A DNA stretch of 64,000 nt from Mnemiopsis leidyi (GCA_048537945.1 CM108483.1:9786715-9850714); one strand, 5' to 3'; shown: positions 7,735 through 58,466, numbered from the stretch's first letter. Notes: a model not told the origin generated them from the letters alone. Numbers and translations: made by a program.

Positions 7735-8925
7735 CGGTGTGGAGCGTGACATGGAAACATGGATCAGTGAAGTGTGGAGGAGGGTGACAGGGAAACCTGG
7801 ATCAGAGAAGTGTGGAGGAGGGTGACAGGGAAACCTGGATCAGACAAGTGTGGAGGAGAGTGACAGGGAAACCTGGATCAGAGAAGTGTGGAGGAGGGTG
7901 ACAAGGAAACCTGGATCAGAGAAGTGTGGAGGAGGGTGACAGGGAAACCTGGATCAGAGAAGTGTGGAGGAGGGTGACAAGGAAACCTGGATCAGAGAAG
8001 TGTGGAGGAGGGTGACAAGGAAACCTGGATCAGAGAAGCGTGGAGGAGGGTGACAGGGAAACCTGGATCAGAGAAGTGTGGAGGAGGGCGACAGGGAAAC
8101 CTGGATCAGAGAAGTGTGGAGGAGGGTGATAGGGAAACCTGGATCAGAGAAGTGTTGAGGAGGATGACAGGGAAACCTGGATCAGAGAAGTGTGGAGGAG
8201 GGTGACAGGGCAACCTGGATCAGAGAAGTGTGGAGGAGGGTGACAGGGAAACCTGGATCAGAGAAGTGTGGAGGAGGGTAAAAGGGAAACCTGGATCAGA
8301 GAAGTGTGGAGGAAGGTGACAGGGAAACCTGGATCAGAGAAGTGTGGAGGAGGGTGACAGGGAAACCTGGATCAGAGAAGTGTGGAGGAGGGTGACAGGG
8401 AAACCTGGATCAGAGAAGTGTGGAGGAGGGTGACAGGGAAACCTGGATCAGAGATGTGTGGAGGAGGGTGACAGGGAAACCTGGATCAGAGAAGTGTGGA
8501 TGAGGGTGACAGGGAAACCTGGATCAGAGAAGTGTGGAGGAGGGTGATAGGGAAACCTGGATCAGAGATGCGTGGAGGAGGGTGACAGGGAAACCTGGAT
8601 CAGAGAAGTGTGGAGGAGGGTGAAAGAGAAACCTGGATCAGAAAAGTGTGGAGGAGGGTGACAGGGAAACCTGGATCAGAGAAGTGTGGAGGAGGGTGAC
8701 ATGGAAACCTGGATCAGAGATGTGTGGAGGAGGGTGACAGGGAAACCTGGATCAGAGAAGTGTGGAGGAGGGTGAAAGAGAAACCTGGATCAGAGAAGTG
8801 TGGAGGAGGGTGACAGGGAAACCTGGATCAGAGAAGTGTGGAGGGGGGTGACAGGGAAACCTGGATCAGAGAAGTGTGGAGGAGGGTGACAGGGAAACCT
8901 GGATCAGAGAAGTGTGGAGGAGGGA
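7735..8925. repeat. Minisatellite of ~30 copies of a 39 bp unit gtgacagggaaacctggatcagagaagtgtggaggaggg
   Basis: Near-perfect tandem iteration visible directly, with point variants among copies. It lies within a SHANK intron. Confidence 0.95.
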
Positions 8926-10001: not shown

Positions 10002-10248
10002 CTGGGTGAATATATATTTTTAGTGTTCAGTTGGAAGGAGGTAGTGCTTGGAAATCGTCCTTTATGAAGTATGTTTAAAGGATGGAATTATAAAGAAGAT
10101 TGTCCAATTACCCGAATTCACAGTAACGTATTTATAATCTATTCACTTGCCGTCTCTGTTATATATTCTTATATTGAGATGGGAAAAGATTAATCTGAAA
10201 CGTAGTTACACACACGCTATAGGCAGGTCGAAGAGAAACTACACAAAC

Positions 10249-10419
10249 CTGATGTAACTCATTCCACTGTCCAGTGTTGTCTACAATGTTCAGATCGCAC
10301 TTCTCCTTCAACAGAATCTCAGCTGTAAGAGTGCTGTTCCCGTCACAGATCGCATTGTAGAGAGGTGTCATGCCCTTCAAATCTCTGGAGTTAACAGACG
10401 CTCCAACATCAAGGAGCAC
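10249..10419 (-). CDS. SHANK: SHANK-like gene, ankyrin-repeat exon (VLLDVGASVNSRDLKGMTPLYNAICDGNSTLTAEILLKEKCDLNIVDNTGQWNELHQ)
   Basis: 57 codons matching SHANK LLELGASPDYKDSYGLTPLYHTAIVGG...CCKDENGWHEIHQ. tttcag acceptor and GTTTGT donor; lies within track ORF 10159-10440 (-). Confidence 0.8.
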
Positions 10420-11402
10420 CTGAAACGTTATATAAGGCACTTCATGTGGAACTTTGAGTATTTATGTGTTAGTACTTAACTCTTGAAGTATACTTAGATT
10501 ATCACGCGTTTGATGGGTGTCGAGTCTGAATTCGATTTACATTTAAAATTATACCACGTGTTTACACGTTACTCAGTAGACCGCAGTTTTCAATTAAATT
10601 GGTGTGATATAAAATAAAAAGGGAATCTTAGGAACCATTTAGTTGCTGCGGGCGGATACATTTTGAAAATCTTAATTTGCTTGTCTTCCCGCCCAGCAAC
10701 TTTCATGTTGGAATCTATTAAACTTATACTGTGCGCGCGTAAAAACGCGCGTGAAAGTAAGCTCTGTGTAAGATTTTCAAAACAAGAAGATTTATGCGTC
10801 TTACAGTTATGCGTGAAGACCCAGTAGTAGTATCATTCGTATCATCATCACATTATTGCGGAAAGCAAATCAAATAAAATCTGTTGGCGTGTAAATACCA
10901 GCATGCAAGAACGAACAGATTTTTACGCTACACTTATTTGGAATGTATCGGCTCCGACATTTTCAAGGAATGTGCGTGAAAGCAAGAGCAAGCACACTTG
11001 CTTTCAGATTGTTTTAAAATTTTAAAGTAAAATCAAGAACTTAATTTCTAATGTTTTAATACTTTCAACACTACTATTATACAAATAATTTGAGGTTTGG
11101 CAACATGATCTGGCGGGCCAAACTATAGCAATAGCCGGAGAAGAACTCTCAATCTTGGGTACGTATTTGCGTCGATTGCCCAAAAGGGAGCTGCTTTTCG
11201 CTGTCATTGTTTTACACATTCAGCTTTGAAGAATTTACGCTGTTTGTGTGTTTGAAGAATTTGTTCAAGACTACTCAATTTCAGTTGGTACCAGCTTTCT
11301 GTGAATACCTGTTACCCACTGTAAGCTATTTTGTTTTCTGGATTCTGCCGCTAAGTTTTTCAGATACGACTGGATCCTATCTCGTGTCTGGGTACTGCGA
11401 CC

Positions 11403-12827
11403 ATGGAATTGGAAGAGGAGTTAGCAAAACAGAGGGTAGTCATTGGGGGGCTTCTCAATGTAGCAAGTGCAGATGCTAAGAGAGTACTCGCTGCATACAG
11501 TCCTGAGAAGGGTTACAGTTACAATCTAACAAAGCTTCTAAAATGTAACTCGAGGCAATTAGAAGCTTGTGCTAGTTTAGTCGGTCTGAAGGCTAGGTCT
11601 GCCGACGGAAGTGATAAACTGTATCAGAAGCTTGAGATCTTAGCAGATAGGATTATCCTGAAGATAGAGTCACTGTTCGAGGCAGAATGCAGTGACTGCA
11701 GAGCTGTGTACTGCAACACACTCGAGTCTGAGCCGCTATTCACGTGCAGGCTCTGTTTACTTGGCAGTCATAACTGTGAGGAGATCAAGAGAAAGGCGGA
11801 AAACGTTGGCCAGCTGTATCCATCTGGTTTTGTCTGGCTGTGTAACGTTTGTCTCGGGAAAAACGACTTGGTTAGCATGCTTTCTCCCACCAACACTCTG
11901 AAAAAACAACCTCTAAAGAAGAACTCCAAACCTACAGCTAGTGTGGAAAAACTTAACACTATCAAGGAAAAGGATTCGGAGGAAGAGAAAGCCGAAGAAG
12001 AAGAAGAGATAAAGGAGGAGGAAGACAAGGTGGACGAGAGACAGAGCCCTAATAGGGTTCGTGATGATAGAGAGAGCGAAAAGTCTGGCAGGGAGAGTCA
12101 GAAAGAGAAGAACCGTGAGATATGCGAGCTGTACAAGAGGAGAGCTTGCCCCCATGGGCTTAAGGGAAAAACTCTACATGACGGAAAGGTGTGTGATAAA
12201 AGTCACCCTAAGAAATGCTTCAAATTCTGTGATTTCGGTTCGAGACATAAAAATGGATGCAAGAGAGGCAAGAAATGTCAGTATTGGCACCCGAGACTTT
12301 GCAGGTTCTCGCTGAAAAATCAGATATGTGAAGTTGAAAGCTGCACCTTCCAACACCTAGTTTTTGACAAAAAAGAGAGGCGTGTGGGCAACAAGGAGCC
12401 GACAGGAGAAGAAAGGGGAGAAAGGGAGAGTGATGTGACAGGAAGGCCTGCAACAACCCGCAATCTGGATCGTGCACCCAAGTTCAGTATTGCTTCATCA
12501 GGCTACAACGGCAGCTACACCCCTTACCCCCCAACTATAGGGAAGCCTGCACCCTCCAAAAAGCAGACGGAAGAGGAGGACATTTCTTTTTTATTCAAGC
12601 TGATCGAGAATCTTCGGGTGGGATTCCAAGAGCAGCTAGAAGGGTTGAGAACAGAGATTGTGAAGGGGCGAGACACGGGGAATCAACTGGCCAATCAGCA
12701 GAGCCAGCAGGAATTCAGGGATCCAAACATGCAGGTGTGTCAGAGAGGGATGCAGATGAACCACCCATTCCCGTACCTGATGCCACACCCGTGGTACAAC
12801 CAGAATTATCCTCCTTTGTCCTCCTAA
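11403..12827 (+). CDS. LINE ORF1: gag-like nucleic-acid-binding protein with Cys-rich zinc-finger/knuckle clusters and an acidic/basic low-complexity linker
   Basis: 474 aa ORF with Cys clusters (CSDCRAVYCN...CRLCLLGSHNCEE...CNVCLGK; CPHGLKGK...CDKSHPKKCFKFCDFGSRHKNGCKRGKKCQYWHPRLC) lying immediately upstream of and overlapping ORF2, the usual LINE layout. Confidence 0.75.
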   Translation: MELEEELAKQRVVIGGLLNVASADAKRVLAAYSPEKGYSYNLTKLLKCNSRQLEACASLVGLKARSADGSDKLYQKLEILADRIILKIESLFEAECSDCRAVYCNTLESEPLFTCRLCLLGSHNCEEIKRKAENVGQLYPSGFVWLCNVCLGKNDLVSMLSPTNTLKKQPLKKNSKPTASVEKLNTIKEKDSEEEKAEEEEEIKEEEDKVDERQSPNRVRDDRESEKSGRESQKEKNREICELYKRRACPHGLKGKTLHDGKVCDKSHPKKCFKFCDFGSRHKNGCKRGKKCQYWHPRLCRFSLKNQICEVESCTFQHLVFDKKERRVGNKEPTGEERGERESDVTGRPATTRNLDRAPKFSIASSGYNGSYTPYPPTIGKPAPSKKQTEEEDISFLFKLIENLRVGFQEQLEGLRTEIVKGRDTGNQLANQQSQQEFRDPNMQVCQRGMQMNHPFPYLMPHPWYNQNYPPLSS

Positions 12828-13945
12828 ACGGACAAAGTGTGTCTCCTGCAGCAACAAGCACATCAAGGTGGAAACTCCCATACCTGGAAAAGACCATAAA
12901 GGAGTTTAGCTGTCCACCACCTTTTATGGCCATCACAGAGACGTGGCTGAAGGGCTATATTAGTGACGCGCAGGTGACAATTGAAGGATATCAGAGTTAC
13001 AGATCAGATAGAGAGGATAGAGTAGGAGGAGGCTGCTTGCTCTACATTCATGACAGCCTTGTAGTCACGGACACAGAGCACTACGAGGACAAGCACCATA
13101 ACATGATCATGTGTTATGTTAGGTCCTGCAATACAGTAATTGCAACTATATACAGACCACCTGGACCCGAGGCACTAGGCTGGAAAGCACTACTTGATAG
13201 GTTACAGATAAAAATTGATGGCTTATCTGAGGGTGGCACAACTCCCGACCTTTACATAGTAGGCGATTTTAACTACCCAGAAATGTACTTGGACCTTGGA
13301 TACTCAGAGCATAGCAGTAGGCCTGGACAAGGTAACGAGTTACAAGAGTTTGTCGATCGAAACTTCCTAACTCAGGTTGTTCAGAAGCCAACAAGAGAAG
13401 GGAATACTCTAGACCTGGTATTTACGAATGTGTCCAGGTACGTTATGGAAGTCGAAGTGAGTGACACCATTCTTTCAGACCACAGGCTAGTGGAGGTACG
13501 GTTGGGGTTCAATATGGTCGGCAATGCCATCGCAAAAGAAACTTCACTGGATCCGTACTCATTTAGAGCAGTTGACTATCACAAAGCCAACTTTGAGGTA
13601 ATGAATCTACAGTTATCCGAAGTGAACTGGGAGGAACTGTGGGAGCTGTGTGACAATAATCTGGGGGAGTTCTTGGAACTTATGCGGCTAACAGTCCTGC
13701 AAGTTACTCTCCTGCACTCGCCCCCAAAGGAGGACAAAGCTGCTGCTATCTCAAGGAGGAGAAGGGCTAACAGGCATATCAACGTCATGAAACGGAAAAG
13801 AAGAAAGCTTAATGCCAGGATAAGGGCGTTAGAATCAGCAAATCCAGGCTCAGGGAGACTGCGGGATCTTAAGTCTGAAGTGGCACTCCTTTGCTACGCC
13901 ATACAAGAGGGTACCCTGAATAAACTGGACAAGAGGGAGAAACGG
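12737..13945 (+). CDS. LINE ORF2 5' part: apurinic-endonuclease-like (EEP family) domain, truncated by a transposon insertion whose first 3 nt (tag) create the stop
   Basis: Typical LINE APE motifs (ITETWL, LLYIHD, YRPPG, IVGDFN, LDLVFTN, SDHRLVEV). The ORF runs into TAG at 13946-13948, which is the first triplet of the inserted element. Confidence 0.85.
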
Positions 13946-16900
13946 TAGGGTGCGCCCTTTTTTCTAAACCTATATGGGCTCTACCCTTATCTGATAGAGC
14001 TCAACGAGCTGAAAACGAGGATGCCTTCCTTTTTGAAATTGGACAACGGGAAAGACTACCCCTGGTCGTTTAAAAGTTACGACGATCTAGGATGTACATG
14101 TTGCGCACGCGCGAACTCGGACGCTTGCATATGCTGCACCTGTCATAACTCACGCGCATTTAGCGCGGCTTCATGGTAACTTCCGTATACACAATGATTA
14201 TCTAGTCACTGACGTAATGCAGTGCTGGCGACTTTGACAAAAGAAAGCAAAGAGGACATACTCCTGACTGAAATCGACCGAGAAATCGTTTAAAGCTATC
14301 GTCGAGGCTCTAAAATGTGACACTAACTCGATAAATGATAAATGATCGGGATTGTAGCTATATAAAAGGTCACAATTCCTGGAATTATTACAGGAGACAA
14401 ACCTTTGAAACGTAAAACAGATCAAGTGAAACACAATCCGGCGAGGATCAAGTAGCAAGCAAGTTACTAGTACTAAAATAAACAAAACCTATATTGCCAA
14501 GTTAGTACTAGTAGTCACAAAATATTTTAGTTACTCAATCGACAGTCGCTCGGTTGCATTATCATAGGAAAGCGAAAGAAACCGTTTACTTTAAACATGC
14601 ACAGCCACAAGCAGTAAGCACACGTTTAACTGAAGTATCGTTCAAGTCAACCCGAATACACAGAGGATATCTCTTATATACCACACTCAGTAGGGGAATG
14701 AAGCGATCTCATTGGCTCCTAGTACGGCTAGCTACGTCACTAGAAGTAGAGACCTAGAGTAAGGTAAAAGTTACGTCACATATCTGCCTGCCGGAGTGAG
14801 GAAAATCAAACGATCTGATTGGCACACAGCTGCAGTCACGTGACTAGATTGAGTGGGGCAAAAGAAACGAACCATCTCTGCTTGCAATTTCCTCACTCAA
14901 ATGATGATGAATCATGATGTGAGTTGTACCGATCTTGAGTGAGGGAAACCAAGCAATCTCATTGGCTAGAAGCAGCAGTCACGTGACCTGGTAGAGTGGG
15001 GAAAAAGAAACGAACCATGTCTGCTTGCAATTTCCTCACTTAAATGATGATGTGACCCGTATCGATCTTGAGTGAGGGAAACCAAGCGATCTCATTGGCT
15101 CATGGCTGCCGTCACGTGACTTGGTAGAGTGGGGCAAAAGATACGTTACACCTTTGCTTGCAACTTTCCCACTCAGATCATGGCGATGCGAACAGTACCG
15201 ATTAGGAGTGAAACGAGACTGAGGCCAGAGTAAGGCAAATCATACGTCACTACAAGAACTTGACGGTCCCCAGAGTGTAATCTTTCGCTCGTTGCCCGTC
15301 AAAAATATGGACTCTGATATGCGAATATCGGCAGCTAGATTAAGATTGTGACCAATCCTTCTCTAGTTAACTTCGCGGCCAGAAAACGTTCCGCTACTAT
15401 ACCAGGGAAAATACTCGAGCTGCGGGGTGCCGTGTCAGATTTTGTCCGCCTGATTAGGTCTGGCGCATTGTCAGGCCTGCTATAAGAAATTTTTCATCGA
15501 TGCATGATTTACAATATAATCATACTTAATTTTTTTAGTGCTAGTCAATCAAACTGAAACATTAATCTAACGTCGTATACGAGTGTTGATAAAACTATAT
15601 CCGTCCGAACGTTAAACGGTTGTGTAGTAATACTACTACTAGTACAAGTACAACTAAGGGTTGCTTCAGTGTTAGGACATAGGTTCAAGGATCGACCGGG
15701 ATCGCTTTTTCAGCCGGGACCGGGACCGGGATCGGTAAAAATGGCCGGGACCGGGATTTTGCCGGGACCGGGATTGTAACCGGGACCGGGACTGTAACCG
15801 GGACCGGGATTGCGACCGGGATCCCGGTCGGTCCCTGCAAAGGTTATAGTTCGATTTAAAATAGAGGGGGTGGATTTAAATGACAAGTCGATTAAGCTGG
15901 TACAAAGGAGACGTCCATGTTAATGTAACTGATTGGCTTTACGATAGACTACAGCAATTAAGGTGCACTATTAGTATTTTTCATATTGGGCGGATTACAT
16001 TTTTCGGAAAGCAGGGGCTGACTCACGCCTCAATATCTGATCGCCATACTTGACACTACACCCGATCCGTGCTGTTTACATTATCTTGTTAAATCTTAAT
16101 TTGTCACCGTGTCGCAGTAGACTGTGAGGAAGCCTTCTTCAGTTGACATCTTCAGCAGGCTTTTTTCGACCCTCATTATCAGAAGCGAATTATTCTCCAA
16201 GAATTTAAAATGTCGGGATGGTGCACGTGCTGTACAACCGCAAGCTCCAATTCCAGGGCATTTTAACTGATCGGTAATATAACGGGTATTTTAACTTTAA
16301 GCTGTTGTCTCACGCTCTGCAAAGTGATTGCATTGTTTTAGGAGAACAATCTTAGAATTAGATAGGGATGTATTATTATTTGCAAGGTCAAGCTACATAG
16401 TGATATATTGTAGATAAACTTAAATATTTGATCATTTCTGTTGAGTCTGTCCGCTCTTGGTCCTAGTAAAAAGTTGCGTTACTGTCGGCTGATAAGGAAG
16501 CGAAGCTAAAAATCTAAACAAAATCTGGATACTGTCAAACCAATTGTGAATTGGTGTTAGTTTTACGTTGTAGGTTGAGAACCTTCTGCCGCGGCCATCA
16601 CGGGCTCTCGCGCATTTCTGGCCTAGCGACACAAATTTTAATTTTTAAGAAATTCTAGACGCTCATCGCCCGTTAAGTTTTACTTTAAAGCTAAACGCTA
16701 CTGGCCAGATCAAAGCGATGTATCATTATATAATGGTCACTCGCAAGACTAGCTTTATAAGTCGATTAGATCGCTTATTTCCCCGGAGCGGCAGCCCCAC
16801 TAAAAAGTTATTTTGAATCTGTAAATGTGCACCGGTAACAGTAACACAGTAAAGGATCCCCAATCAGCAATGGAGGTGACGTGTCTTCAGCTTTAGCGGT

Positions 16901-18151
16901 TACCGTTCGAGTACAACTACATAGTAGTGACGTGTGATTCGCCTAACTCTAGCCTCAATCACGTGACCAGCTGCAAGCCAAAGAGATCGCTTGGTTTCCT
17001 TCACTCCTAATCGGTGCAGGTCGCATCGTTGTGATCTGAGTGGGGGAGTTGCCTGGTGCAAGCAAAGTTGAAAGTTGTGACGTATCCTTTGCCCCACTCT
17101 ACCAAGTCACGTGACGGCAGCTATGAGCCAATGAGATCGCTTGACTTCCCTCACTCAAGATCGGTACAGCTCATATCATCATTTGAGTGAGGAAATTGCA
17201 AGCAGACATGGTTCGGTTCTTTTTCCAGACTCTACCAGGTCACGTGACTGCAGCTGCGAGCCAATGAGAAGCTTGGTTTCCCTCACTCCAACAGGTAGAT
17301 ATGAGACGTAACTTTTACCTTACTGTAGGTCTCTAGTGACGCAGCCGGCCTGAGGAGCCAATCAGATCGCTTGATTCCCCTACTGAGTGTGGTATATAAG
17401 AGCTTTACTTGTTGTTTTCGGGTTGATTTGATCGATACTTCCAGTTACACGTGTGCTTACTGCTTGCGGCTGTGCATATTTAACAATCGGTTTCTTTCGC
17501 TTCGCTATAATAATGCTACCGAGCTACTGTAGATTGAGTGACTGAAATATTTAGCGACTACTAAGTTTGCAACATAGGTAAGCCTCACGTTGTGGCCCCG
17601 TTAGTCCTACTGTCATCCCGGTTCTAGTATGAGTACAAGATGCTTGCTTGCCACTTAGTCCACGCTTATCGCCGGATCATTCGATCTGTATTACGCTTGA
17701 AAGGTTTGTCTCTTGTAATAATTCCATCAATTGTGACCTTTGATATAACAACAATCCCGATCATTTATCGAGTTAGTGTCACATTTTAGAGCCTCGACGA
17801 TAGCTTTAAACGATTTCTCGGTCGATTTTAGTCAGGAGTATGTCCTCTTTGCTCTCTTTTGTCAAAGTCGCCAGCACTGCATTACGTCAGAGAATAGATA
17901 ATCATTGTGTATACGGAAGTTACCATGAACCCGCGCTGAATGCGCGTGAGTTATGACAGGTGCAGCATGCAAGCGTCCGAGTTCGCGCGTGCGCAACATG
18001 TACATCCTAGATCGTCGTAACTTTTAAACGACCAGGGGTAGTCTTTCCCGTTGTCCAATTTCAAAAAGGAAGGCATCCTCGTTTTCAGCTCGTTGAGCTC
18101 TATCAGATAAGGGTAGAGCCCATATAGGTTTAGAAAAAAGGGCGCACCCTA
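13946..18151. mobile_element. Non-autonomous foldback-type DNA transposon. It has perfect terminal inverted repeats (tagggtgcgccctttttt...), ~1.3 kb inverted arms (13946-~15245 and ~16880-18151) with ~127 bp tandem subrepeats, a ~1.6 kb unique core without ORFs, and a 9 bp TSD gagaaacgg (13937-13945 / 18152-18160)
   Basis: The reverse complement of 13946-14440 matches 17700-18151 nearly base for base. The subrepeats (gagtgagggaaaccaagc...tcacgtgac...) occur 3x in each arm in mirrored orientation. Identical 9-mers flank the element. Removing the element plus one TSD restores the ORF2 frame. Confidence 0.85.
15700..15840. repeat. (gaccggga)-type microsatellite with palindromic character, inside the core of the foldback element
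   Basis: Iterated cgggaccgggat motifs ending in the palindrome gaccgggatcccggtc. Confidence 0.8.
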
Positions 18152-18160
18152 GAGAAACGG

Positions 18161-20050
18161 GCAGTAGAGACTATAAAGGACAACCCAAAATACTTCTTTT
18201 CATATGCTAAACGTCTACAAAAGACAAAGTCCACCATACCTGTCCTTAGAGATGAAAATGGCAGGCTGGTAGAGGACCCTGCGATTAAAGCTGAACTGTT
18301 GCAAACCCAATATCAAAAGGTTTTCAGCAACCCAAAGGATGCAAACCTTGAAGAGTGTATGGGAAATCCGGGTTTACCACAGGGATCAAATCAAGGTTTT
18401 GGTGAACTCAGTTTTACAATAGAAGACATCTTAGAAGCCCTGGAGGAATTAGATCCGTACTCGGCAGCACCTGACGGCGATATTCCTGCAAAGATTCTGA
18501 AGGTCTGTAGATACCAGCTAGCGGGCCCACTCAAATTGCTATGGTACGAGTCATTCAGCAGGGGGTGCATACCGGAGGAGCTTAAGACACAGTATATCAC
18601 TCCTATTTACAAAAAGGGTGATAGGACGGACCCTGCAAACTACAGGCCAGTGTCACTGACCTCTCATGTTATGAAGACCTTTGAGAGGGTGATGAGGAAG
18701 TACCTCGTCAAGTATCTTGAGGATTCAGAGTTCCTGCATAACAACCAACATGGGTTCAGAAAGAAAAGGAGCTGTATGACCCAACTCCTCAGCCATATCG
18801 ATCAGATTTACCAGTCGCTCAACAACAACGACGAAGTCGATGTGATCTATCTAGACTTTGCTAAGGCTTTCGATAAAGTCGATCACTCGATCCTACTTGC
18901 TAAATTAGCTCGTTATGGCATTAAAGGTAAAGCACTCAAGTGGCTTAATGAGTTTCTGTGTGGAAGGAAGCAGACAGTAGTTGTTGAAGGCACGAGGTCA
19001 TCTCTACAACCGGTTGTGAGTGGTGTACCTCAAGGGACAGTACTGGGTCCTATTCTTTTTGTGCTCTACATAAACGATCTGTTGAGTACAATTAAACACA
19101 GCTGCGGGTTTAGCTTCGCCGATGATACTAAACTCATCGGAGGTATTCAAGGGCTATCCAGTGTGAACCACCTACAAGATGACCTGAACTTAGTGATAGA
19201 GTGGTCAAGGAGTAATAATATGGAGCTGCACGAGCAGAAGTTTGAAGTGGTCAGCTACAACCTCAACACGTCGAAGACTCTAAGAGAGCTCCCGTTATAC
19301 CCTGAAAATGTTGAGTATAGCACCCCAAAAGGACATGTTATAACACCACAGGAAATTGTCTGTGACCTGGGTGTCAATGTTAGCAGCAGCAGGGGGTGGG
19401 GACCACACATCGAGAAGACAGTTCAGGGAGCTAGGAAGATGGCGGCATGGGTATTGAGCGCGTTCAGAGATCGGTCACCCACTGTGATGCTCACATTATA
19501 TAAGAGTATGGTCCGGTCCAAACTTGAATACTGCTGCCCAGTCTGGAATCCTGTGAAGATTACAGAGATTCAGAGGCTAGAGAACGTACAGAGATCGTTC
19601 ACAAGGAAGATACTTGGCTGCAGTGAGCTTCAATACTGGGACAGGCTAAAGAAGCTCAAGTTAATGTCACTTCAAAGAAGAAGAGAGCGTTACTGCATCA
19701 TACACGTTTGGAAGATCTTAAACGAAGAGGCTCCGAATGACATTGGCTTCACATTCAACTGTCACCAGCGACTGGGGTTGAAGGCGGTTATACCACCGGT
19801 GAACAAGAACTCCCAACTGTCGGTGAGATCTGACTACGACAGTACATTCAGGGTTAGAGCAGCTCAGCTCTTCAACATCCTGCCACCAGAGCTCCGTGCT
19901 ACTACCTCACTGGATGGCTTTAAGGCAGGACTTGGAAGATTCATGGACCAGTGCCCAGACACCCCACCGATCCCGGGTTACACTCCATCGAACGACAACT
20001 CGCTACTGAGCTGGAGGAGGACGCACACGATGCAGTTGTCCTGTGCATGA
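18161..20050 (+). CDS. LINE ORF2 3' part: reverse transcriptase domain plus a C-terminal domain, in frame with 12737-13945 once the nested insertion is removed
   Basis: RT motifs 1-7 (PDGDIPAKILK, YRPVSLTSHVMKTFERV, QHGFRKKRSCMTQL, IYLDFAKAFDKVDH, SGVPQGTVLGPILF, FADDTKLIG). The join ...gagaaacgg|gcagtagag reads EKRAVET, and the excised length 4215 equals 3x1405. Confidence 0.9.
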   Translation, partial: AVETIKDNPKYFFSYAKRLQKTKSTIPVLRDENGRLVEDPAIKAELLQTQYQKVFSNPKDANLEECMGNPGLPQGSNQGFGELSFTIEDILEALEELDPYSAAPDGDIPAKILKVCRYQLAGPLKLLWYESFSRGCIPEELKTQYITPIYKKGDRTDPANYRPVSLTSHVMKTFERVMRKYLVKYLEDSEFLHNNQHGFRKKRSCMTQLLSHIDQIYQSLNNNDEVDVIYLDFAKAFDKVDHSILLAKLARYGIKGKALKWLNEFLCGRKQTVVVEGTRSSLQPVVSGVPQGTVLGPILFVLYINDLLSTIKHSCGFSFADDTKLIGGIQGLSSVNHLQDDLNLVIEWSRSNNMELHEQKFEVVSYNLNTSKTLRELPLYPENVEYSTPKGHVITPQEIVCDLGVNVSSSRGWGPHIEKTVQGARKMAAWVLSAFRDRSPTVMLTLYKSMVRSKLEYCCPVWNPVKITEIQRLENVQRSFTRKILGCSELQYWDRLKKLKLMSLQRRRERYCIIHVWKILNEEAPNDIGFTFNCHQRLGLKAVIPPVNKNSQLSVRSDYDSTFRVRAAQLFNILPPELRATTSLDGFKAGLGRFMDQCPDTPPIPGYTPSNDNSLLSWRRTHTMQLSCA

Positions 20051-21222
20051 ACTGCCGAACCATCCAAAACGTACCAAACGTACGTACGTATGTTGAGCTA
20101 ATGATGAGATGTTGAATTTTTAATCCCATTTGTAATTAAATCCAGTCTAATAACAACTGACTCCGAAGCCTTCATTACGCGTACACTGCCTAAAAGCCAT
20201 CACAGCACAGCTTGTACCCTCCTAATAAACTTTTAATTTAAACATTCGCTCCCTTGCCCCAGGTAAAATGAACGTCAACCATTTAGCCATTTAAGGGTGG
20301 GCCAATTAACGAATGCAACAAACTGTGTTGGAGAGTTCTGCATTAACTGTCCAATTTAACAGCCGAAATTTATTTCGATTTTCTAAAAGAAGGTTAAACC
20401 CGATTTGAGATTTCCACAAATCACATAACACTAGGCTCTGACACTACTTTCAAGTGTTTTTTTGTAAGTTTCAATTAGTTTCACAATATTCGCGTGTTTA
20501 TTATGACAAGCATTGCTCATAACTAAGCATTAAGCAACAGGTAGTTTTGGGTGTAAGATAAACAAATCTAAAACTCGGCGCTTTATCACAAAGAAGTCTC
20601 TAGCAATTGTAATGGCAAACACTAAAGAGGGCGTGTGGCTACTTTAACATCTACACAAAGCATTAAAAACAATGAAAAGTGTAGACAGTATGGCTAACAA
20701 TATAATAATGAATATTGGAGGTTTGTCCCCACCCCTAGTTAGACACATTGGAGACAAGTTAAATTGTCAAGAGTGAAGTGTAAAGGGACAGTGAGGGTAA
20801 ATAGCGGTACAGTCATCATATGATTAGATAGTCACATACTTGAACTGCAATCTTCATTCTTCTACACACATTCCGACATAAAATTGCGATCGTTTATTCA
20901 TGATGCGATGTAGAATGAAGGTAGCTGTGGTATGTGTGTGTGTGTGTGTCGTTCAGATTGGGACATTCTTGCTGCAATTTATCTTGTGACACTTGCGTTA
21001 TTTGACTAATGAAAGGGCTATACCAACTACGATAATCGCTGAATAATTAGATAATGTCACGAGAAGAGCCCAAAAAACCTGATTGAAATAGGGTATCTAG
21101 TTTCTAGTATGAAGGTATCTAAATTGTTAGTTAGTACATCAGATTGATATAGGTATCTAAGTAGGTAGGTATCTCCTTATACACAACTATGTCCGCACTC
21201 TATAACACGAGCACAGACATAC

Positions 21223-25439: not shown

Positions 25440-25915
25440 CAATAAACTTCCCAGGCCGGTAACCAGTACCCAGGCCGGTAACCAGTACCCAGGCCGGTAA
25501 ACAGTACCCATGCCGGTAAACAGTACCCATGCCGGTAAACAGTACCCATGCCGGTAAACAGTACCCATGCCGGTAAACAGTACCCAGGCCGGTAAACAGT
25601 ACCCATGCCGGTAAACAGTACCCATGCCGGTAAACAGTACCCATGCCGGTAAACAGTACCCAGGCCGGTAAACAGTACCCATGCCGGTAAACAGTACCCA
25701 GGCCGGTAAACAGTACCCATGCCGGTAAACAGTACCCATGCCGGTAAACAGTACCCAGGCCGGTAAACAGTACCCAGGCCGGTAAACAGTACCCATGCCG
25801 GTAAACAGTACCCAGGCCGGTAAACAGTACCCAGGCCGGTAACCAGTACCCAGACCGGTAAACAGTACCCAGAGCGGTAACCAGTACCCATGCCGGTAAA
25901 CAGTACCAATAATCT
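25440..25915. repeat. Minisatellite of ~24 copies of a 20 bp unit ccggtaaacagtacccaggc (with cat/cag variants)
   Basis: Direct tandem iteration. The three overlapping minus-strand ORFs in the track here are repeat-translation artefacts. Confidence 0.95.
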
Positions 25916-41866: not shown

Positions 41867-43183
41867 TTGTTTACTTCAGCTATCAAAATGCCGATTCCAA
41901 ATCAACAGACTGCCTCTGAAGTTATGAAAGAGCGCGAAAGGCTTTACAAGCTTATTATCGGTCAACTCCGTAAAGACAAATTTGAGACTGTTGCATATGA
42001 GTTAACAGTTGCGCTCAAGAATGCCACTGGTGGATTTATGATTCAGAGTGCTCCTACAAATAGGCTTAGTCAGCTAGTCCAGTATGGAATAAAATATGAA
42101 GAACTTAATGAAGAGACTGAGACGCATAGCAAAAAGCTTGAGAAAGCCACAAACCTTGGCCCTGGTTTAGATCTAGAGTATGACACAGATGACATGAACT
42201 CCTCTCCTACTGTTATTCAATATGAAACTGCTTATGTTACCTCACACAAAGCCCCCTGTCGTGTTGCCTGCTTTACAGCTGATGGAAAACTCTGTGCTAC
42301 AGGGAGTGTGGATGCAAGTCTAAAAATAATGGATGTTGAACGGATGATTGCCAAATCACAGCAGCTTCAGAGGCAAGAGAACGAAAATCATCCTGTCATA
42401 AGAACTCTTTATGACCATCTTGACTCGATAACTGCACTCACTTTCCATCCTGTTACAACACACTTGGTAAGTGGATCCAAGGACTGCACCATCAAGGTGT
42501 TTGACTTTACCAAAGCTAGCGTGAAAAAAGCAGTCAAGTGTCTGGAGGAGGGGGCATCAGTCAGAAGTTTGGCTTTCCACTCTACAGGGGACTATCTGCT
42601 GATGGCTCTTGATCATCCAGTCATAAGATTGTATGATTATGTCACTCTGAAGTGCTATGTTTGTTCAAATAGTCTGTCACAGCACTCGGGTCCTGTTTTG
42701 GCATTATGTTGGAACTCTGACTGTACAATGTATGCAAGTTGCAGTAGTGACGGTTCCATTAAATTGTGGGATGGTGTTAGCAACAGATGTGTGAAAACCT
42801 TTGATGATGCTCACAACGGTGCTGAAGTGACCAGTGTTCAATTCTCAAGGAATGGGAAATATGTGCTATCCAGTGGAAAGGACAGTGTTGTTAAGCTTTG
42901 GGAGGTTACCAGTGGTAACATCTTGAACGAGTATGTAGGTGTCACTCAGCACAACCACCGAACTGGAGCACAGTTTAACCACACCGAGGACCTGATCATA
43001 GCTCCTGATGAGAAAGGAATGGCTGTTGGGTGCTGGGATGCTCGCACTGCTGAGCCTCACCCCCATTTAGTGTCTGGACACAACAATGTTATTCGGGGAG
43101 CAATTCACTCTCCTACCATGCCAGCATTCATATCTTGCAGTGACGATTTCAGGGCCAGATTTTGGTATTACAGAGGAATTTGA
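41867..43183 (+). CDS. CSTF1: Cleavage stimulation factor subunit 1 (CstF-50) ortholog with N-terminal dimerisation region and WD40 repeats, encoded as a single uninterrupted ORF
   Basis: 438 aa ORF collinear with human CSTF1 over its whole length (LYKLIIGQL, YETAYVTSHKAPCRVA, ENHPVIRTLYDH, SNRCVKTFDDAHNGAEV, FNHTED, CSDDFRARFWY). A possible acceptor (tttacttcag) sits just upstream in the 5' UTR. Confidence 0.9.
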   Translation: MFTSAIKMPIPNQQTASEVMKERERLYKLIIGQLRKDKFETVAYELTVALKNATGGFMIQSAPTNRLSQLVQYGIKYEELNEETETHSKKLEKATNLGPGLDLEYDTDDMNSSPTVIQYETAYVTSHKAPCRVACFTADGKLCATGSVDASLKIMDVERMIAKSQQLQRQENENHPVIRTLYDHLDSITALTFHPVTTHLVSGSKDCTIKVFDFTKASVKKAVKCLEEGASVRSLAFHSTGDYLLMALDHPVIRLYDYVTLKCYVCSNSLSQHSGPVLALCWNSDCTMYASCSSDGSIKLWDGVSNRCVKTFDDAHNGAEVTSVQFSRNGKYVLSSGKDSVVKLWEVTSGNILNEYVGVTQHNHRTGAQFNHTEDLIIAPDEKGMAVGCWDARTAEPHPHLVSGHNNVIRGAIHSPTMPAFISCSDDFRARFWYYRGI

Positions 43184-46567: not shown

Positions 46568-49500
46568 TAATTAGGGGGGGGGGGCCACGTCCCTAAAAAG
46601 CCCATTTTTACCTTCGCGGACCCCCGAAGGGCCCTAAAAAATGGGCTTTTTTGGGCCCTAGAAAAAATTAAAATCATGCTTTATATTAGAATAATTTAGA
46701 TCAATTCAAACTCGTTCTTTGCATCGTTTTCAATTTTAAAAGGCACTTTGTATGATTTAACCCGTTGTTCTATTGAAATTTGGTCCCAAAAACTCCTTAT
46801 TTGTCCCAATTTTGATCCCAAAAAGTAGCAACTGTCACTTCATTTGGTAGAGTTTTCATGTACTGCTGGGATGCTACTGTAGCATTACTTAAATAGTAAC
46901 TACTACTGGTTTAATGCAGGGTTTTGGGGGTACTACAAGGATATAACAGGGGGATTACTGGGGTACTACTAGGGTCCAACTGTGGTACCAAGTCGGGGTA
47001 CCACCGTGGTACCACTGGGCTCATACTTTGGTACTACCGGGTTACTACATGGGAGCCACAACTTGGTACTACTAGGATACTACTAGATTACTACTGGAAT
47101 ACTACTCGGATATTACTGGGATGCTAATGGAGTACTACACGAGTACTACTGGGGCACCATTGGGGTACTTCTACACTGGGATACAGCTATGATAATGTGA
47201 TACTACTGGGGTACTACAACTGGTTTACTACGGGAATACTACAAGGGTTCAGCTGGGGTACTACTGGGCCTAAAGCACTACATGGGCACTACTGGGGAAC
47301 TACTAGGATACTAATGGGGTACCAGTAACCACTGGGTTATGACTGGGGTACTACTTTTGTTTATAGGGGTACTATTGGGATAATACTAGGATGCTACTGG
47401 GATATGACTGGTGTACACTTCTGGGGTACTACTGGAGTCCTAGAGGGGAACCTTGGGTACCACTGGGGTACCACAGCTAGGTGACTACTGGGGTAATTCA
47501 GTGGTACAACTGGGACATTACTGGAGTACTTAAGGAGTACTACAAGGGTACTTATATAGGAGTAATATAGGAATACTACCTGGGTACTACAGAATTTCTA
47601 CTCACCAATTGGGTCACTTCTTGGCTTCTACAGGAGTACTAAGTAGGCGTTATACTATGGTACTGCTGTGATGCTACTGGGGTATTATAACTCGGTGATT
47701 TTTGGGATACTGGGGTACTACAGTGGTACTACTGGGATACTACTGAGTCACTACTGGGGTACTACAGTAATACTAATTGGATACTACTGTGTCACTACTG
47801 GGGTACTACAGTGGTACTACTGGAATACTACTGGGGTACTACAGTGGTACTACAGTGATACTACTGGGATACTACTGGGTCACTACTGGAGTACTACAGT
47901 GATACTAATGGGATACTACTGGGTCACTACTGGGGTACTACAGTAGTACTACTGGGATACTACTGAGTCACTACTGAGTACTGGGGTACTACAGTAATAC
48001 TAATGGGATACTACTGTGTCACTACTGGGGTACTACAGTGGTACTACTGGTATACTACTGGGGTACTACAGTGGTACTACAGTGATACTACTGGGATACT
48101 ACTGGGTCACTACTGGAGTACTACAGTGATACTAATGGGATACTACTGGGGCACTACTGGGGTACTACAGTGATACTAATGGGATACTACTGGGTCACTA
48201 CTGGGGTACTACAGTGGTACTACTGGGTTACTACTGGAATACTACTGGGTCACTACTGGGGTACTACAGTGGTACTACTGGGATACTTATGGGATACTAC
48301 TGGGTCACTACTGGGGTACTACTGTGGTACTACTGGGATCTAATGGGATACTACTGGGGCACCACTGGGTTACTAATGGGGTACTACAGTGGTACTACTG
48401 GGATACTACTGGGGTACCACTGGATATTGCTTGAGTTCCAAAGGAGTGATACAGGAGAAACATAGGAATAATCCTGGGCTACCAGTGGATTCCTAATTGG
48501 TACTGCAGGAGTACTACTTGGGTACCATTGTTTCACTTCTGGGGTTCTGCAGACTACCAAGTAGGGGTACTACTATGGTACTGCTTGGATGCTACCCGGG
48601 TACTACAGCTGGATCACTACTGGTGTACTACTGGCTTACTGGGGTACTAAAGAATTGTGCTGAGGTACTACTATAGTATCGTTGCATCGGGGTACTCATA
48701 GGGTACTATTGCACCTTGGGCACTACATGTGCATTAATTGGGCACTGCTGGGTACTACTGGTTCACTACTGTGGTATTACCGTGGTTGTAAAAGGTTCTA
48801 TTGGGATAACACTGGAGAACTACTGGGGTACTACAGGGATACTACAAGGATATTACTGGGGTGCCACTGCGTTATTACTAGGATTCACAAGGAGTGCTAC
48901 AGGCCAGGGGTACCACTGGAGTACTACTTGTGCACTTCAGGAGTACTTGTGGGGTACCATTGGGTTACTATTAGGGTACTTTTGCACTACTTAGTTGGGG
49001 TACTGCCGGGATACTACTGTGATACTACTGGGGTACTGCAAAAGTACTAGTGAGGTACTGCAGTTTTACTAAGTTGGGGCACTACTAAGGTAGTTCTGGG
49101 ATACTTCTCAGTGCTGGAGCACTACAGCTTTGTTACTACTGGGATACTACTGGATAACTTTTGGGATACACCTGGGGTACTACTGTGGTACTACTGGGGT
49201 CGTAGCGGTTTAAATAAGGTACTACTGGGGTATTATATTGCTAGTGAACTACTTGAATACAACTGGGGTACTACTTTGTTATTGCTGGGATACTGCTAGG
49301 GTACTACAGGAATGCTACTGGGTTACTACTGGGGTACTGCAGGGACACTAAAGGGGTGTTCTTGGGGTACAATTGCAGCACCACTGGGGTACAACTGTGG
49401 TACTACCGGGGTACTACATGGGTAGTATAGGAGTGCTTCTGGAGAACTACTCAGTACTGGGGTACAACAGGGACAGAAAAGGGGTTAAATTGGGACACTA

Positions 49501-52397: not shown

Positions 52398-52578
<181 letters not shown>

Positions 52579-57306: not shown

Positions 57307-57464
57307 GTATGTGGTTTTTCAGTTCATACGTTTCAAGTAATACCTAAATCATGACACAGGGCGTTTGGAAAGTTGAATGATATCATTCTTATAATTTTAT
57401 TGATTAAATTATGTATATACTATTTCGTGAGCTCATTAAGTAACCGAAAATCGCTACTCTTCAG

Positions 57465-57684
57465 AGCTATGAACCACAACACTAAAACGTCCCTGGACAA
57501 AGAAACAGCGATAGAGTTCAGTAACGCTACCCTTACTTGGGACGTAGTAGATGACGCGGCTTTAATCCTCCAGAACGTTAACGTCAAGATTCCCAAGGGT
57601 AAACTGACGATCGTAGTGGGCGAGGTCGGTTCTGGGAAGACTGCTCTTGTCAGCGCTCTTCTTAACGAGATGCACATTAAGTCT
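57465..57684 (+). CDS. ABCC/MRP exon 14 (NBD1 Walker A: VVGEVGSGKTALVSALLNEM)
   Basis: GxxGxGKT/S P-loop in the MRP NBD1 context. ctcttcag acceptor and GTAAGT donor. Confidence 0.85.
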
Positions 57685-57851
57685 GTAAGTAACCTTTTTT
57701 CTGAACGTCATGATATGCAGTTAATGGAGCCTAATTTAGTAAATTCTGCAAGCCAGGACTTGGCCCGTATAACTAAAAACTTGAAAAGCAGTTTGTTGCC
57801 TAATCGTAAATAAGTAAGTTTTGCTGTAGACGTTAAACTGGAATAATTCAG

Positions 57852-58274
57852 GGAAAGGTAACGAGAAGTATTAAAAGTGATAAGATAAGTTACGCCTCGC
57901 AAAGTCCATGGATTCTCAACTCTACTGTCAAAGAAAACATCATATTCGGACAGCCACTAGACGAGCGTCGGTATAAAAGCGTGTGTGCTGCAGCTTGTCT
58001 CGATTTGGACTTGAAAACACTGCCAGGTGGCGATCAAACTGAAATCGGGGAACGTGGAATCAACCTCAGCGGTGGACAGCGTCAGAGAGTCAGTGTCGCT
58101 CGGGCTCTGTACGCGCAGTCCGATCTTGTTATTCTTGATGATCCGTTATCTGCTCTGGATGCGCACGTTGGAAGTAAACTGTTTGAGAAGGGTATAAAGA
58201 AGTTCCTGGGTGAGGCAAACAGGACTGTTGTTCTCATAACTCATCACCTGCAGTATCTGAAGAATGCCGATTTG
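57852..58274 (+). CDS. ABCC/MRP exon 15 (NBD1 Q-loop, ABC signature LSGGQRQR, Walker B LVILDDPLSALDAHVG, H-loop)
   Basis: Motif-for-motif match to MRP1 NBD1. aattcag acceptor; the donor is placed at the weak GTTGGT site to keep ...NADL|VIELDHG in frame, so the 3' end is less certain. Confidence 0.8.
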
Positions 58275-58466
58275 GTTGGTTACGTTTTTGAAATCAGCTG
58301 ACAGTTGTTAAGCGTTGCTAGGTTTTATCTAAAAATGAACTTTTAACTATATATTCAGATCTAATGAAACTCTTTATTTTACCCGCAGTTGAATTAACTT
58401 ATTATGATTACAGAAGACAAGATGAGAGGGTCAAAGTTACTGAGTATAACACAAAGTTACTTGCAG

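Follow-up and report, generated by a model that had tools for sequence, protein, structure and literature searches.

The DNA analyzed here is a 64,000-nucleotide stretch of genomic DNA from the ctenophore Mnemiopsis leidyi (GCA_048537945.1 CM108483.1:9786715-9850714), referred to below as the window; all coordinates are counted from its first letter. Positions 13946-18151 are occupied by a 4206-bp element with long inverted arms, which sits within open reading frame 2 (ORF2) of a long interspersed nuclear element (LINE). Each arm consists of an outer terminal repeat, an inner unique part, and a block of subrepeats, and the two arms enclose a unique noncoding core. The element is very probably a nonautonomous long-inverted-repeat (foldback-like) cut-and-paste DNA transposon of M. 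leidyi, and its arrival in ORF2 of this young LINE was recent.

The boundaries of the element are sharply defined. Its 18-nt terminus, TAGGGTGCGCCCTTTTTT, occurs at two sites in the 64 kb—13946 (+) and 18151 (-)—even when up to three mismatches are allowed (0.05 expected), and the window holds one copy of the element. Perfect 9-bp direct repeats, GAGAAACGG, abut both ends, at 13937-13945 on the left and 18152-18160 on the right. The base just outside TAGGG is G, C, T, and G at the four termini available for comparison (two here and one each at the metagenome loci L008 and L011 described below); because this base is not conserved, the element starts at T and the target-site duplication is 9 bp long. 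The alternative of an 8-bp duplication plus a chance base, which needs an asymmetric end, was rejected on the same ground.

The surrounding LINE occupies window positions 11100-13945 and 18161-20400. Its ORF1 (11403-12827, +; 474 aa) is intact. ORF2 is divided into an endonuclease part (12737-13945, +), cut off by the TAG of the element terminus, and a reverse transcriptase part (18161-20050, +) on the far side of the insertion. In silico excision of the element together with one GAGAAACGG yields an open ORF2 of 1032 codons that joins endonuclease and reverse transcriptase, and the restored protein is 99% identical to an intact, uninterrupted protein recovered by protein search (P0014). The three contigs that carry P0014 (L039-L041: Logan SRR16531664, ENA ERZ21854017, and Logan SRR17458618) are 99.4-99.6% identical to the window LINE, and all three present the empty site, ...AAGAGG GAGAAACGG GCAGTAG..., with the 9-mer occurring once. 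Because three near-identical LINE copies show an empty site with a single GAGAAACGG, the insertion is clean and recent. It postdates a LINE copy whose own divergence from its relatives is only ~0.5%. The intact ORF1 and restored ORF2, together with the 99.4-99.6% identity of the copies, mark the LINE family as young, and it is probably active in M. leidyi to this day. An NCBI gene model, ACHWQZ_G009948 (P0116), fuses ORF1 with the endonuclease part and ends in ...LDKREKR at the element's TAG, so the published assembly contains the element. The insertion has broken up a LINE copy and cut short an annotated gene model.

The inverted arms measure 1308 bp on the left and 1228 bp on the right and make up ~60% of the 4206 bp. 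Local alignment of 13946-15149 with the reverse complement of 18151-16927 gives 1037 matches, 116 mismatches, and 51/72 nt of gaps, and shorter inverted pairs prolong the arms to 15253 and 16924. Foldback-like elements are recognized by long inverted arms that form most of the element around a middle domain, and this is the arrangement found here.

Arm identity is not uniform. The outer ~392 bp form a terminal inverted repeat, 13946-14339 (+) against 17760-18151 (-), with 98.5% identity (six mismatches and one small indel); the first 183 nt are free of mismatches, all of which fall within the next 209 nt. Inward of ~14340, identity drops abruptly to 80-89%. The left inner unique part (14340-14687, +) is 83-89% identical to its partner, and the right inner unique part spans 17386-17759 (-). 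The step from ~99% to ~85% at ~390 bp hints at a functional terminal repeat of ~390 bp, with the inner similarity stemming from an older duplication. Each outer repeat contains two boxes: box 1, TAGGGTGCGCCCTTTTTTCTAA, at 13946-13967 (+), with its right copy at 18130-18151, and box 2, TTTTGAAATTGGACA, at 14031-14045 (+), with its right copy at 18052-18066. In each arm the outer ~740 bp is unique and free of subrepeats, and within 13946-14660 (~715 bp) no short motif (7-9-mer) is over-represented beyond shuffled sequence.

Subrepeats are confined to 14688-15253 (left, +) and 16924-17385 (right, -), the inner ~45% of each arm, where they form four to five units of 106-143 bp. The left block contains a degenerate unit (14688-14793), three full units (14794-14936, 143 bp; 14937-15069, 133 bp; 15070-15202, 133 bp), and a truncated unit (15203-15253). 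The right block runs in the opposite direction from a degenerate unit (17385-17289) through units at 17288-17157, 17156-17024, and 17023-16924. The left arm has one full unit more than the right, and the arms are not plain mirror images: the best pairings, 14937-15069 with 17288-17157 (89-93%) and 15070-15202 with 17156-17024 (92%), are shifted by one unit. A difference in repeat number between the arms is a further mark of foldback-like elements.

A full unit consists of a CCAAT-like box, GAGTGAGGGAAACCAAGCGATCTCATTGGC, followed by a palindrome, GTCACGTGAC, and a 3' segment, TTTCCTCACTC. The last of these pairs with GAGTGAGGGAAA, which opens the next unit, so that unit junctions form local ~20-bp hairpins. 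These hairpins account for sub-threshold matches to mir-67 in Rfam; a mir-67-like RNA gene was rejected. The palindromic motif TCACGTGA occurs in three units per arm and only in the arms, six times in the window against 0.72 expected (14836, 14979, and 15112 on the left; 16959, 17107, and 17240 on the right). In the outermost unit of each arm and in the left arm's truncated innermost unit, it is replaced by (T/G)CGTCAC. These measurements correct the initial annotation, which was made from the sequence alone and described arms built of ~127-bp subrepeats, each with a CACGTG palindrome. The period is 133-143 bp, as given by Tandem Repeats Finder (period 133), by the spacings (143 and 133), and by the unit boundaries listed above; each arm has subrepeats only over its inner ~45%; and the palindrome is a property of three units per arm rather than of every unit.

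Between the arms lies a unique core of 1670 bp (15254-16923) with no ORF longer than 66 aa. Its six frames gave no match in Pfam, its ORFs no relatives in the protein database, and its sequence no Rfam family at threshold. The longest ORF in the whole element (95 aa) lies in the left arm, and the element's concatenated pseudo-ORFs gave no match in a protein search. Captured host coding sequence, in the style of Pack-MULEs (MULE, Mutator-like element), was considered and dropped, as nothing of the kind was detectable by Pfam or protein-database search. The core contains a minisatellite (15696-15837, +), ~440 bp away from one arm's inner edge, in which an 18-bp unit, CCGGGACCGGGATTGTAA, is repeated ~4.3 times and terminates in a short palindrome, CCGGGATCCCGG. 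The initial annotation had read this array as a palindromic (ccggga)n microsatellite; the palindrome is there, at the array's end, and the 18-bp unit makes the array a minisatellite. Its other structural claims—a large nonautonomous foldback element at exactly 13946-18151, with 1.3-kb arms that are mutual reverse complements over more than 1 kb, an ORF-less unique core, and a 9-bp target-site duplication—agree with the measured ends and alignments, the single GAGAAACGG in uninterrupted LINE copies, and the lack of coding capacity.

The composition of the element also differs from that of its surroundings. The observed/expected ratio of CpG is 1.03 for the element, 1.30 for the outer terminal repeat, and 1.16 for the core; outside the element the window stands at 0.69, and the LINE around it at 0.51. 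The element may lack CpG depletion because it arrived recently, because it escapes methylation in the germline, or because motifs that contain CpG are under constraint. Three motifs are denser in the element than in the rest of the window: CACGTG (1.9 versus 0.25 per kb), TGACGT (1.9 versus 0.48 per kb), and CCAAT (3.8 versus 1.9 per kb).

A scan of metagenome contigs with the 18-mer TAGGGTGCGCCCTTTTTT returned 28 loci (L001-L028), of which two extend beyond the terminus: L008 and, weakly, L011. The remaining 26 were set aside as terminator-like or otherwise chance matches without extension; many consist of a GC-rich stem followed by a T run and look like the descending arm and T run of a bacterial intrinsic terminator. 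Because TAGGGTGCGCCCTTTTTT resembles terminators, terminus-only searches of mixed databases yield mostly false positives. The corresponding scan of IMG/VR gave seven loci, none of them extending, and the combined pattern of box 1 followed by box 2 had no match in GTDB genome contigs or in IMG/VR.

Locus L008 (OFJA01000440.1) matches the terminal 105 bp of the element at 73% of positions. Box 1 is identical at 22 of 22 positions, and an 18-nt form of box 2, CTTTTTGAAATTGGACAA, is identical at 18 of 18 and lies at an equal offset. Positions 1-2755 of this contig represent 2.75 kb of a distantly related, noncoding element, which contains a 21-bp minisatellite of five copies, some eight ACAAAAAGAAGTAAG motifs that occur in both orientations, and five CACGTG sites (0.41 expected), with paired CACGTG-containing inverted repeats. 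At L011, 25 of 26 terminal bases are alike, and a shorter form of box 2, GGAAATTGGACA, stands at a slightly different offset. The terminus TAGGGTGCGCCCTTTTTT and the internal box GAAATTGGACA are thus common to the element and one metagenome contig, possibly a second, and this joint conservation points to a family that extends beyond the single copy in the window. Conservation of both boxes amid a remainder diverged beyond recognition is the pattern expected of transposase-recognition sequences, a role that the boxes may well have. The ORFs of L008 and L011 gave no match in a protein search, and the window ORFs examined contained no transposase domain. In the literature, the terminus string returned only unrelated primer-type matches, and a full-text search, which covered papers and not Repbase, returned no paper that links Mnemiopsis with foldback or MuDR elements; one apparent match to MuDR was the surname of an author.

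Several of these features are those of class II cut-and-paste elements. Defined terminal inverted repeats are present, and the target-site duplication has its counterpart in LINE copies that lack the insertion and show an empty site. No transposase gene lies inside the element, as expected of a nonautonomous member of this class. In these respects it is an ordinary, well-preserved element of a known transposon kind, and no new mechanism is indicated. It is mildly unusual in its modular 133-bp units with motifs of the transcription-factor type, its lack of CpG depletion, and its conserved terminus in environmental contigs.

Comparison with described foldback families places the element's architecture among known forms. 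Drosophila FB elements, which are grouped with the Mutator superfamily and to which the initial annotation had likened it, share the long, internally repetitive inverted arms with differing repeat number, the noncoding middle, and the 9-bp duplication. Their arms consist almost wholly of short (10-31 bp) tandem repeats that reach out to the ends, whereas here the outer ~740 bp is unique and the inner ~45% is made of four to five units of 106-143 bp. There is also no sequence similarity, and the host is a ctenophore, not an insect. With arms that are not subrepeats throughout but a long unique inverted repeat with four to five inner units of ~133 bp, the element stands closer in architecture to Galileo or Tetris (PMC3573991, PMC4079207).

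Galileo, of the P superfamily, has the closest architecture: 0.3-1.2-kb terminal repeats, a block of long direct tandem repeats whose internal position is fixed, a tandem-repeat number that differs between arms, and repeats thought to hold secondary transposase-binding sites (PMC3573991). Those repeats have been reported to carry secondary binding sites for the THAP-domain transposase in the accounts of Galileo that bear on this point (PMC3573991; PMC3688188). Galileo differs in its THAP/P-type transposase and in its 7-bp duplications (PMC3573991); because the duplication here is 9 bp, the likeness is convergent and does not signify membership. Tetris of Drosophila virilis is likewise modular, noncoding, and foldback-like, with 8-10-bp duplications, and was put in Mutator on duplication length alone, with no autonomous copy found (PMC4079207)—the same state of evidence as here. 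It differs in sequence, in repeat units (~220 bp and others), and in host, and it seeded satellite DNA (PMC4079207), of which we see no evidence for the present element.

Two further families share the 9-bp duplication. Tm1 of Meloidogyne, a Mutator/Foldback element with a Phantom-type transposase, has composite foldback-like repeats of variable length and mostly noncoding members that are mobilized in trans (PMC3169594). Its 14-bp units, asymmetric 7-bp end motifs, length of ~1-2.6 kb, and known transposase (PMC3169594) contrast with the 133-bp units, symmetric ends, and 4.2-kb length of the M. leidyi element. Rehavkus combines a 9-bp duplication with terminal repeats of up to ~400 bp and an internal minisatellite (PMC6446971); the corresponding features here are the 392-bp repeat and the 18-bp, 4.3-copy minisatellite, with a 21-bp, five-copy array in the relative L008. 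Rehavkus is defined by a PHD-finger transposase and has been reported only from arthropods and annelids (PMC6446971), and the minisatellite described here lies ~440 bp from one arm's inner edge rather than adjoining the 3' repeat. The Rehavkus group is a reasonable match.

The superfamily is most likely Mutator (the MULE, Phantom/FB, or Rehavkus group), which we regard as the probable assignment, well short of certainty; it rests on structure, because no transposase is tied to the element. What favors Mutator is the 9-bp duplication in combination with near-perfect terminal repeats of several hundred base pairs. Duplications of MULEs are 8-11 bp long, and their terminal repeats commonly span hundreds of base pairs (PMC6446971). 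The element has the typical 9 bp, and its long terminal repeats extend for 392 bp at 98.5% identity and to ~1.2 kb at lower identity. The initial annotation had offered FB-type and MULE as alternatives and left the superfamily open. Between these two there is no real choice to make: foldback elements with 9-bp duplications are mostly placed in Mutator, including Tm1 and Tetris (PMC3169594, PMC4079207). Mnemiopsis has an expanded set of genes with the FLYWCH domain (PMC10027918). Phantom transposases bind DNA through this domain, and the expansion lends Mutator circumstantial support. The share of our confidence that we assign neither to Mutator, nor to hAT, nor to another superfamily reflects uncertainty about whether one insertion is representative.

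Several points weigh against a Mutator-group foldback transposon and have to be set beside this evidence. MULE ends often begin with G, and the TAGGG terminus fits the hAT terminal consensus YARNG. The length of the duplication rests on a single insertion, one copy from the M. leidyi genome. L011 is only a weak relative, with a 26-nt terminal match and a shifted box 2, and the searches of metagenomes, GTDB, IMG/VR, and protein databases, which did not extend to the M. leidyi chromosomes, found no autonomous partner or transposase. The unit motifs CCAAT, CACGTG, and TGACGT are also classic host transcription-factor sites. The fit to YARNG bears on hAT, under which the element would be a nonautonomous member with unusually long inverted repeats and either an atypical duplication or an 8-bp duplication extended by a coincidental base or an asymmetric end. 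TAGGGTG is moreover similar to hAT ends of the CAGGGGTG type. Among hAT elements, however, the duplication is nearly always 8 bp and the terminal repeats are usually 10-25 bp, as against 9 bp and a 392-bp repeat at 98.5% identity here; both ends abut GAGAAACGG, and the unconserved base outside TAGGG at four termini fixes the length at 9 bp. Nor does the outer 715 bp show the subterminal short repeats of hAT elements as an enrichment over shuffled sequence. Genes for hAT-type transposases do exist in the species, to judge from a ZBED/hAT-like M. leidyi protein in the supplement of one study (PMC10027918), but we consider a hAT origin quite improbable. Another or undescribed cut-and-paste superfamily—Merlin, a P/Galileo-like group, or a new clade that makes 9-bp duplications—is unlikely. 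Merlin elements have 8-9-bp duplications and repeats of up to 462 bp, but their ends begin with GG, where this element begins with TA, and only ORF remnants of Merlin are reported in M. leidyi (PMC8101967). Galileo offers the most similar arm architecture, but P-type duplications of 7-8 bp (7 bp in Galileo) do not agree with 9 bp (PMC3573991).

Two further readings were considered. One holds that it is no transposon: either an assembly artefact, a palindromic long-read chimera, or two inverted elements flanking unrelated DNA. Long-read assemblies can make false inverted duplications, and arm identity does vary along the length. A fold-back artefact would not, however, yield inner arms of 80-89% identity that differ by a whole subrepeat unit. 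The insertion is also exact, flanked by a 9-bp duplication, and paralogous LINE copies show the empty site; a related terminus occurs in an independent metagenome contig, and the NCBI gene model is truncated at the identical point. As to a composite, the terminus is found only at the two outer ends and is absent from the inner arm ends, so the arms are not separate elements. We give this reading almost no chance of being correct. The other holds that the host has co-opted the element or its 133-bp units for a regulatory or architectural role, for example as clusters of CCAAT, E-box, and cAMP response element (CRE) sites or as chromatin-loop anchors. The higher density of CACGTG, TGACGT, and CCAAT and the undepleted CpG (1.03, against 0.69 in the rest of the window and 0.51 in the LINE) would fit, as would a report that loop-engaged promoters of M. 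leidyi are rich in transposon insertions (PMC12221973). This copy, however, lies in a LINE ORF and not in a promoter, and so recent an insertion leaves no time for co-option, which makes that reading very unlikely. A broader proposal joins several of these strands: that the element belongs to a previously undescribed foldback-like family of the Mutator group, the first in Ctenophora and present in other organisms too, as the terminus conserved in metagenome contigs would suggest, whose 133-bp units are portable, CpG-rich, unmethylated clusters of transcription-factor sites (CCAAT box, CACGTG E-box, and CRE half-site). Taken jointly, these components make a speculative proposal with a slim chance of holding. 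If true, every transposition event would carry regulatory or chromatin-architecture modules, already assembled, to new sites, and the family would connect with the reported association between transposons and looping promoters in M. leidyi.

For the preferred reading, a nonautonomous foldback-like DNA transposon, the following mechanism would account for the observed structure. A transposase encoded elsewhere would move the element in trans, recognizing the terminal box TAGGGTGCGCCC(T)6 and probably also the box TTTTGAAATTGGACA ~85 bp inside. After excision by this enzyme, the element would be reinserted at target cuts staggered by 9 bp, with repair producing the duplication. The 133-bp units, each with its CCAAT-like box, GTCACGTGAC palindrome, and hairpin, probably serve as arrays of additional, secondary sites for transposase binding, a putative role assigned by analogy with Galileo. 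Such arrays may grow and shrink by unequal exchange or slippage, as in Galileo and FB elements, and we propose that expansion and contraction of this kind produced the one-unit difference between the arms.

Ctenophore transposable elements are poorly catalogued, and this well-preserved recent copy supplies exact termini, duplication length, and architecture with which to seed a census and a search for the transposase. It also marks recent DNA-transposon activity in M. leidyi. Its 1.2-kb inverted arms could, like Galileo in Drosophila, give rise to hairpins, deletions, and inversions.

Elsewhere in the window, genes and tandem arrays were noted on both sides of the LINE. An intronless CSTF1-like gene (41888-43183, +) encodes a 431-aa protein with a dimerization domain and a WD40 propeller; it is identical to M. 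leidyi KAL5259679.1 and shares a 90% cluster with Bolinopsis microptera XP_063679369.1. Probable host exons include an ankyrin-repeat exon at 10162-10461 (-) and two pieces of an ABC-transporter ATP-binding domain at 57355-58298 (+). Upstream of the LINE, a G-rich 38-bp minisatellite (7741-8924; 31 copies, 95% identity) produces a local GC-skew peak of 0.37. A 19-bp minisatellite, CCCAGGCCGGTAAACAGTA, occupies 25450-25907 (24 copies, 95% identity); all three frames are open across it, which gives rise to spurious ORFs of 125-162 aa. The remaining arrays are an 11/44-bp tandem array of the TACTGGGGTAC type at 46927-49422, with ~65 copies in its main block (47708-48423), and a (TC)85 microsatellite at 52409-52578.

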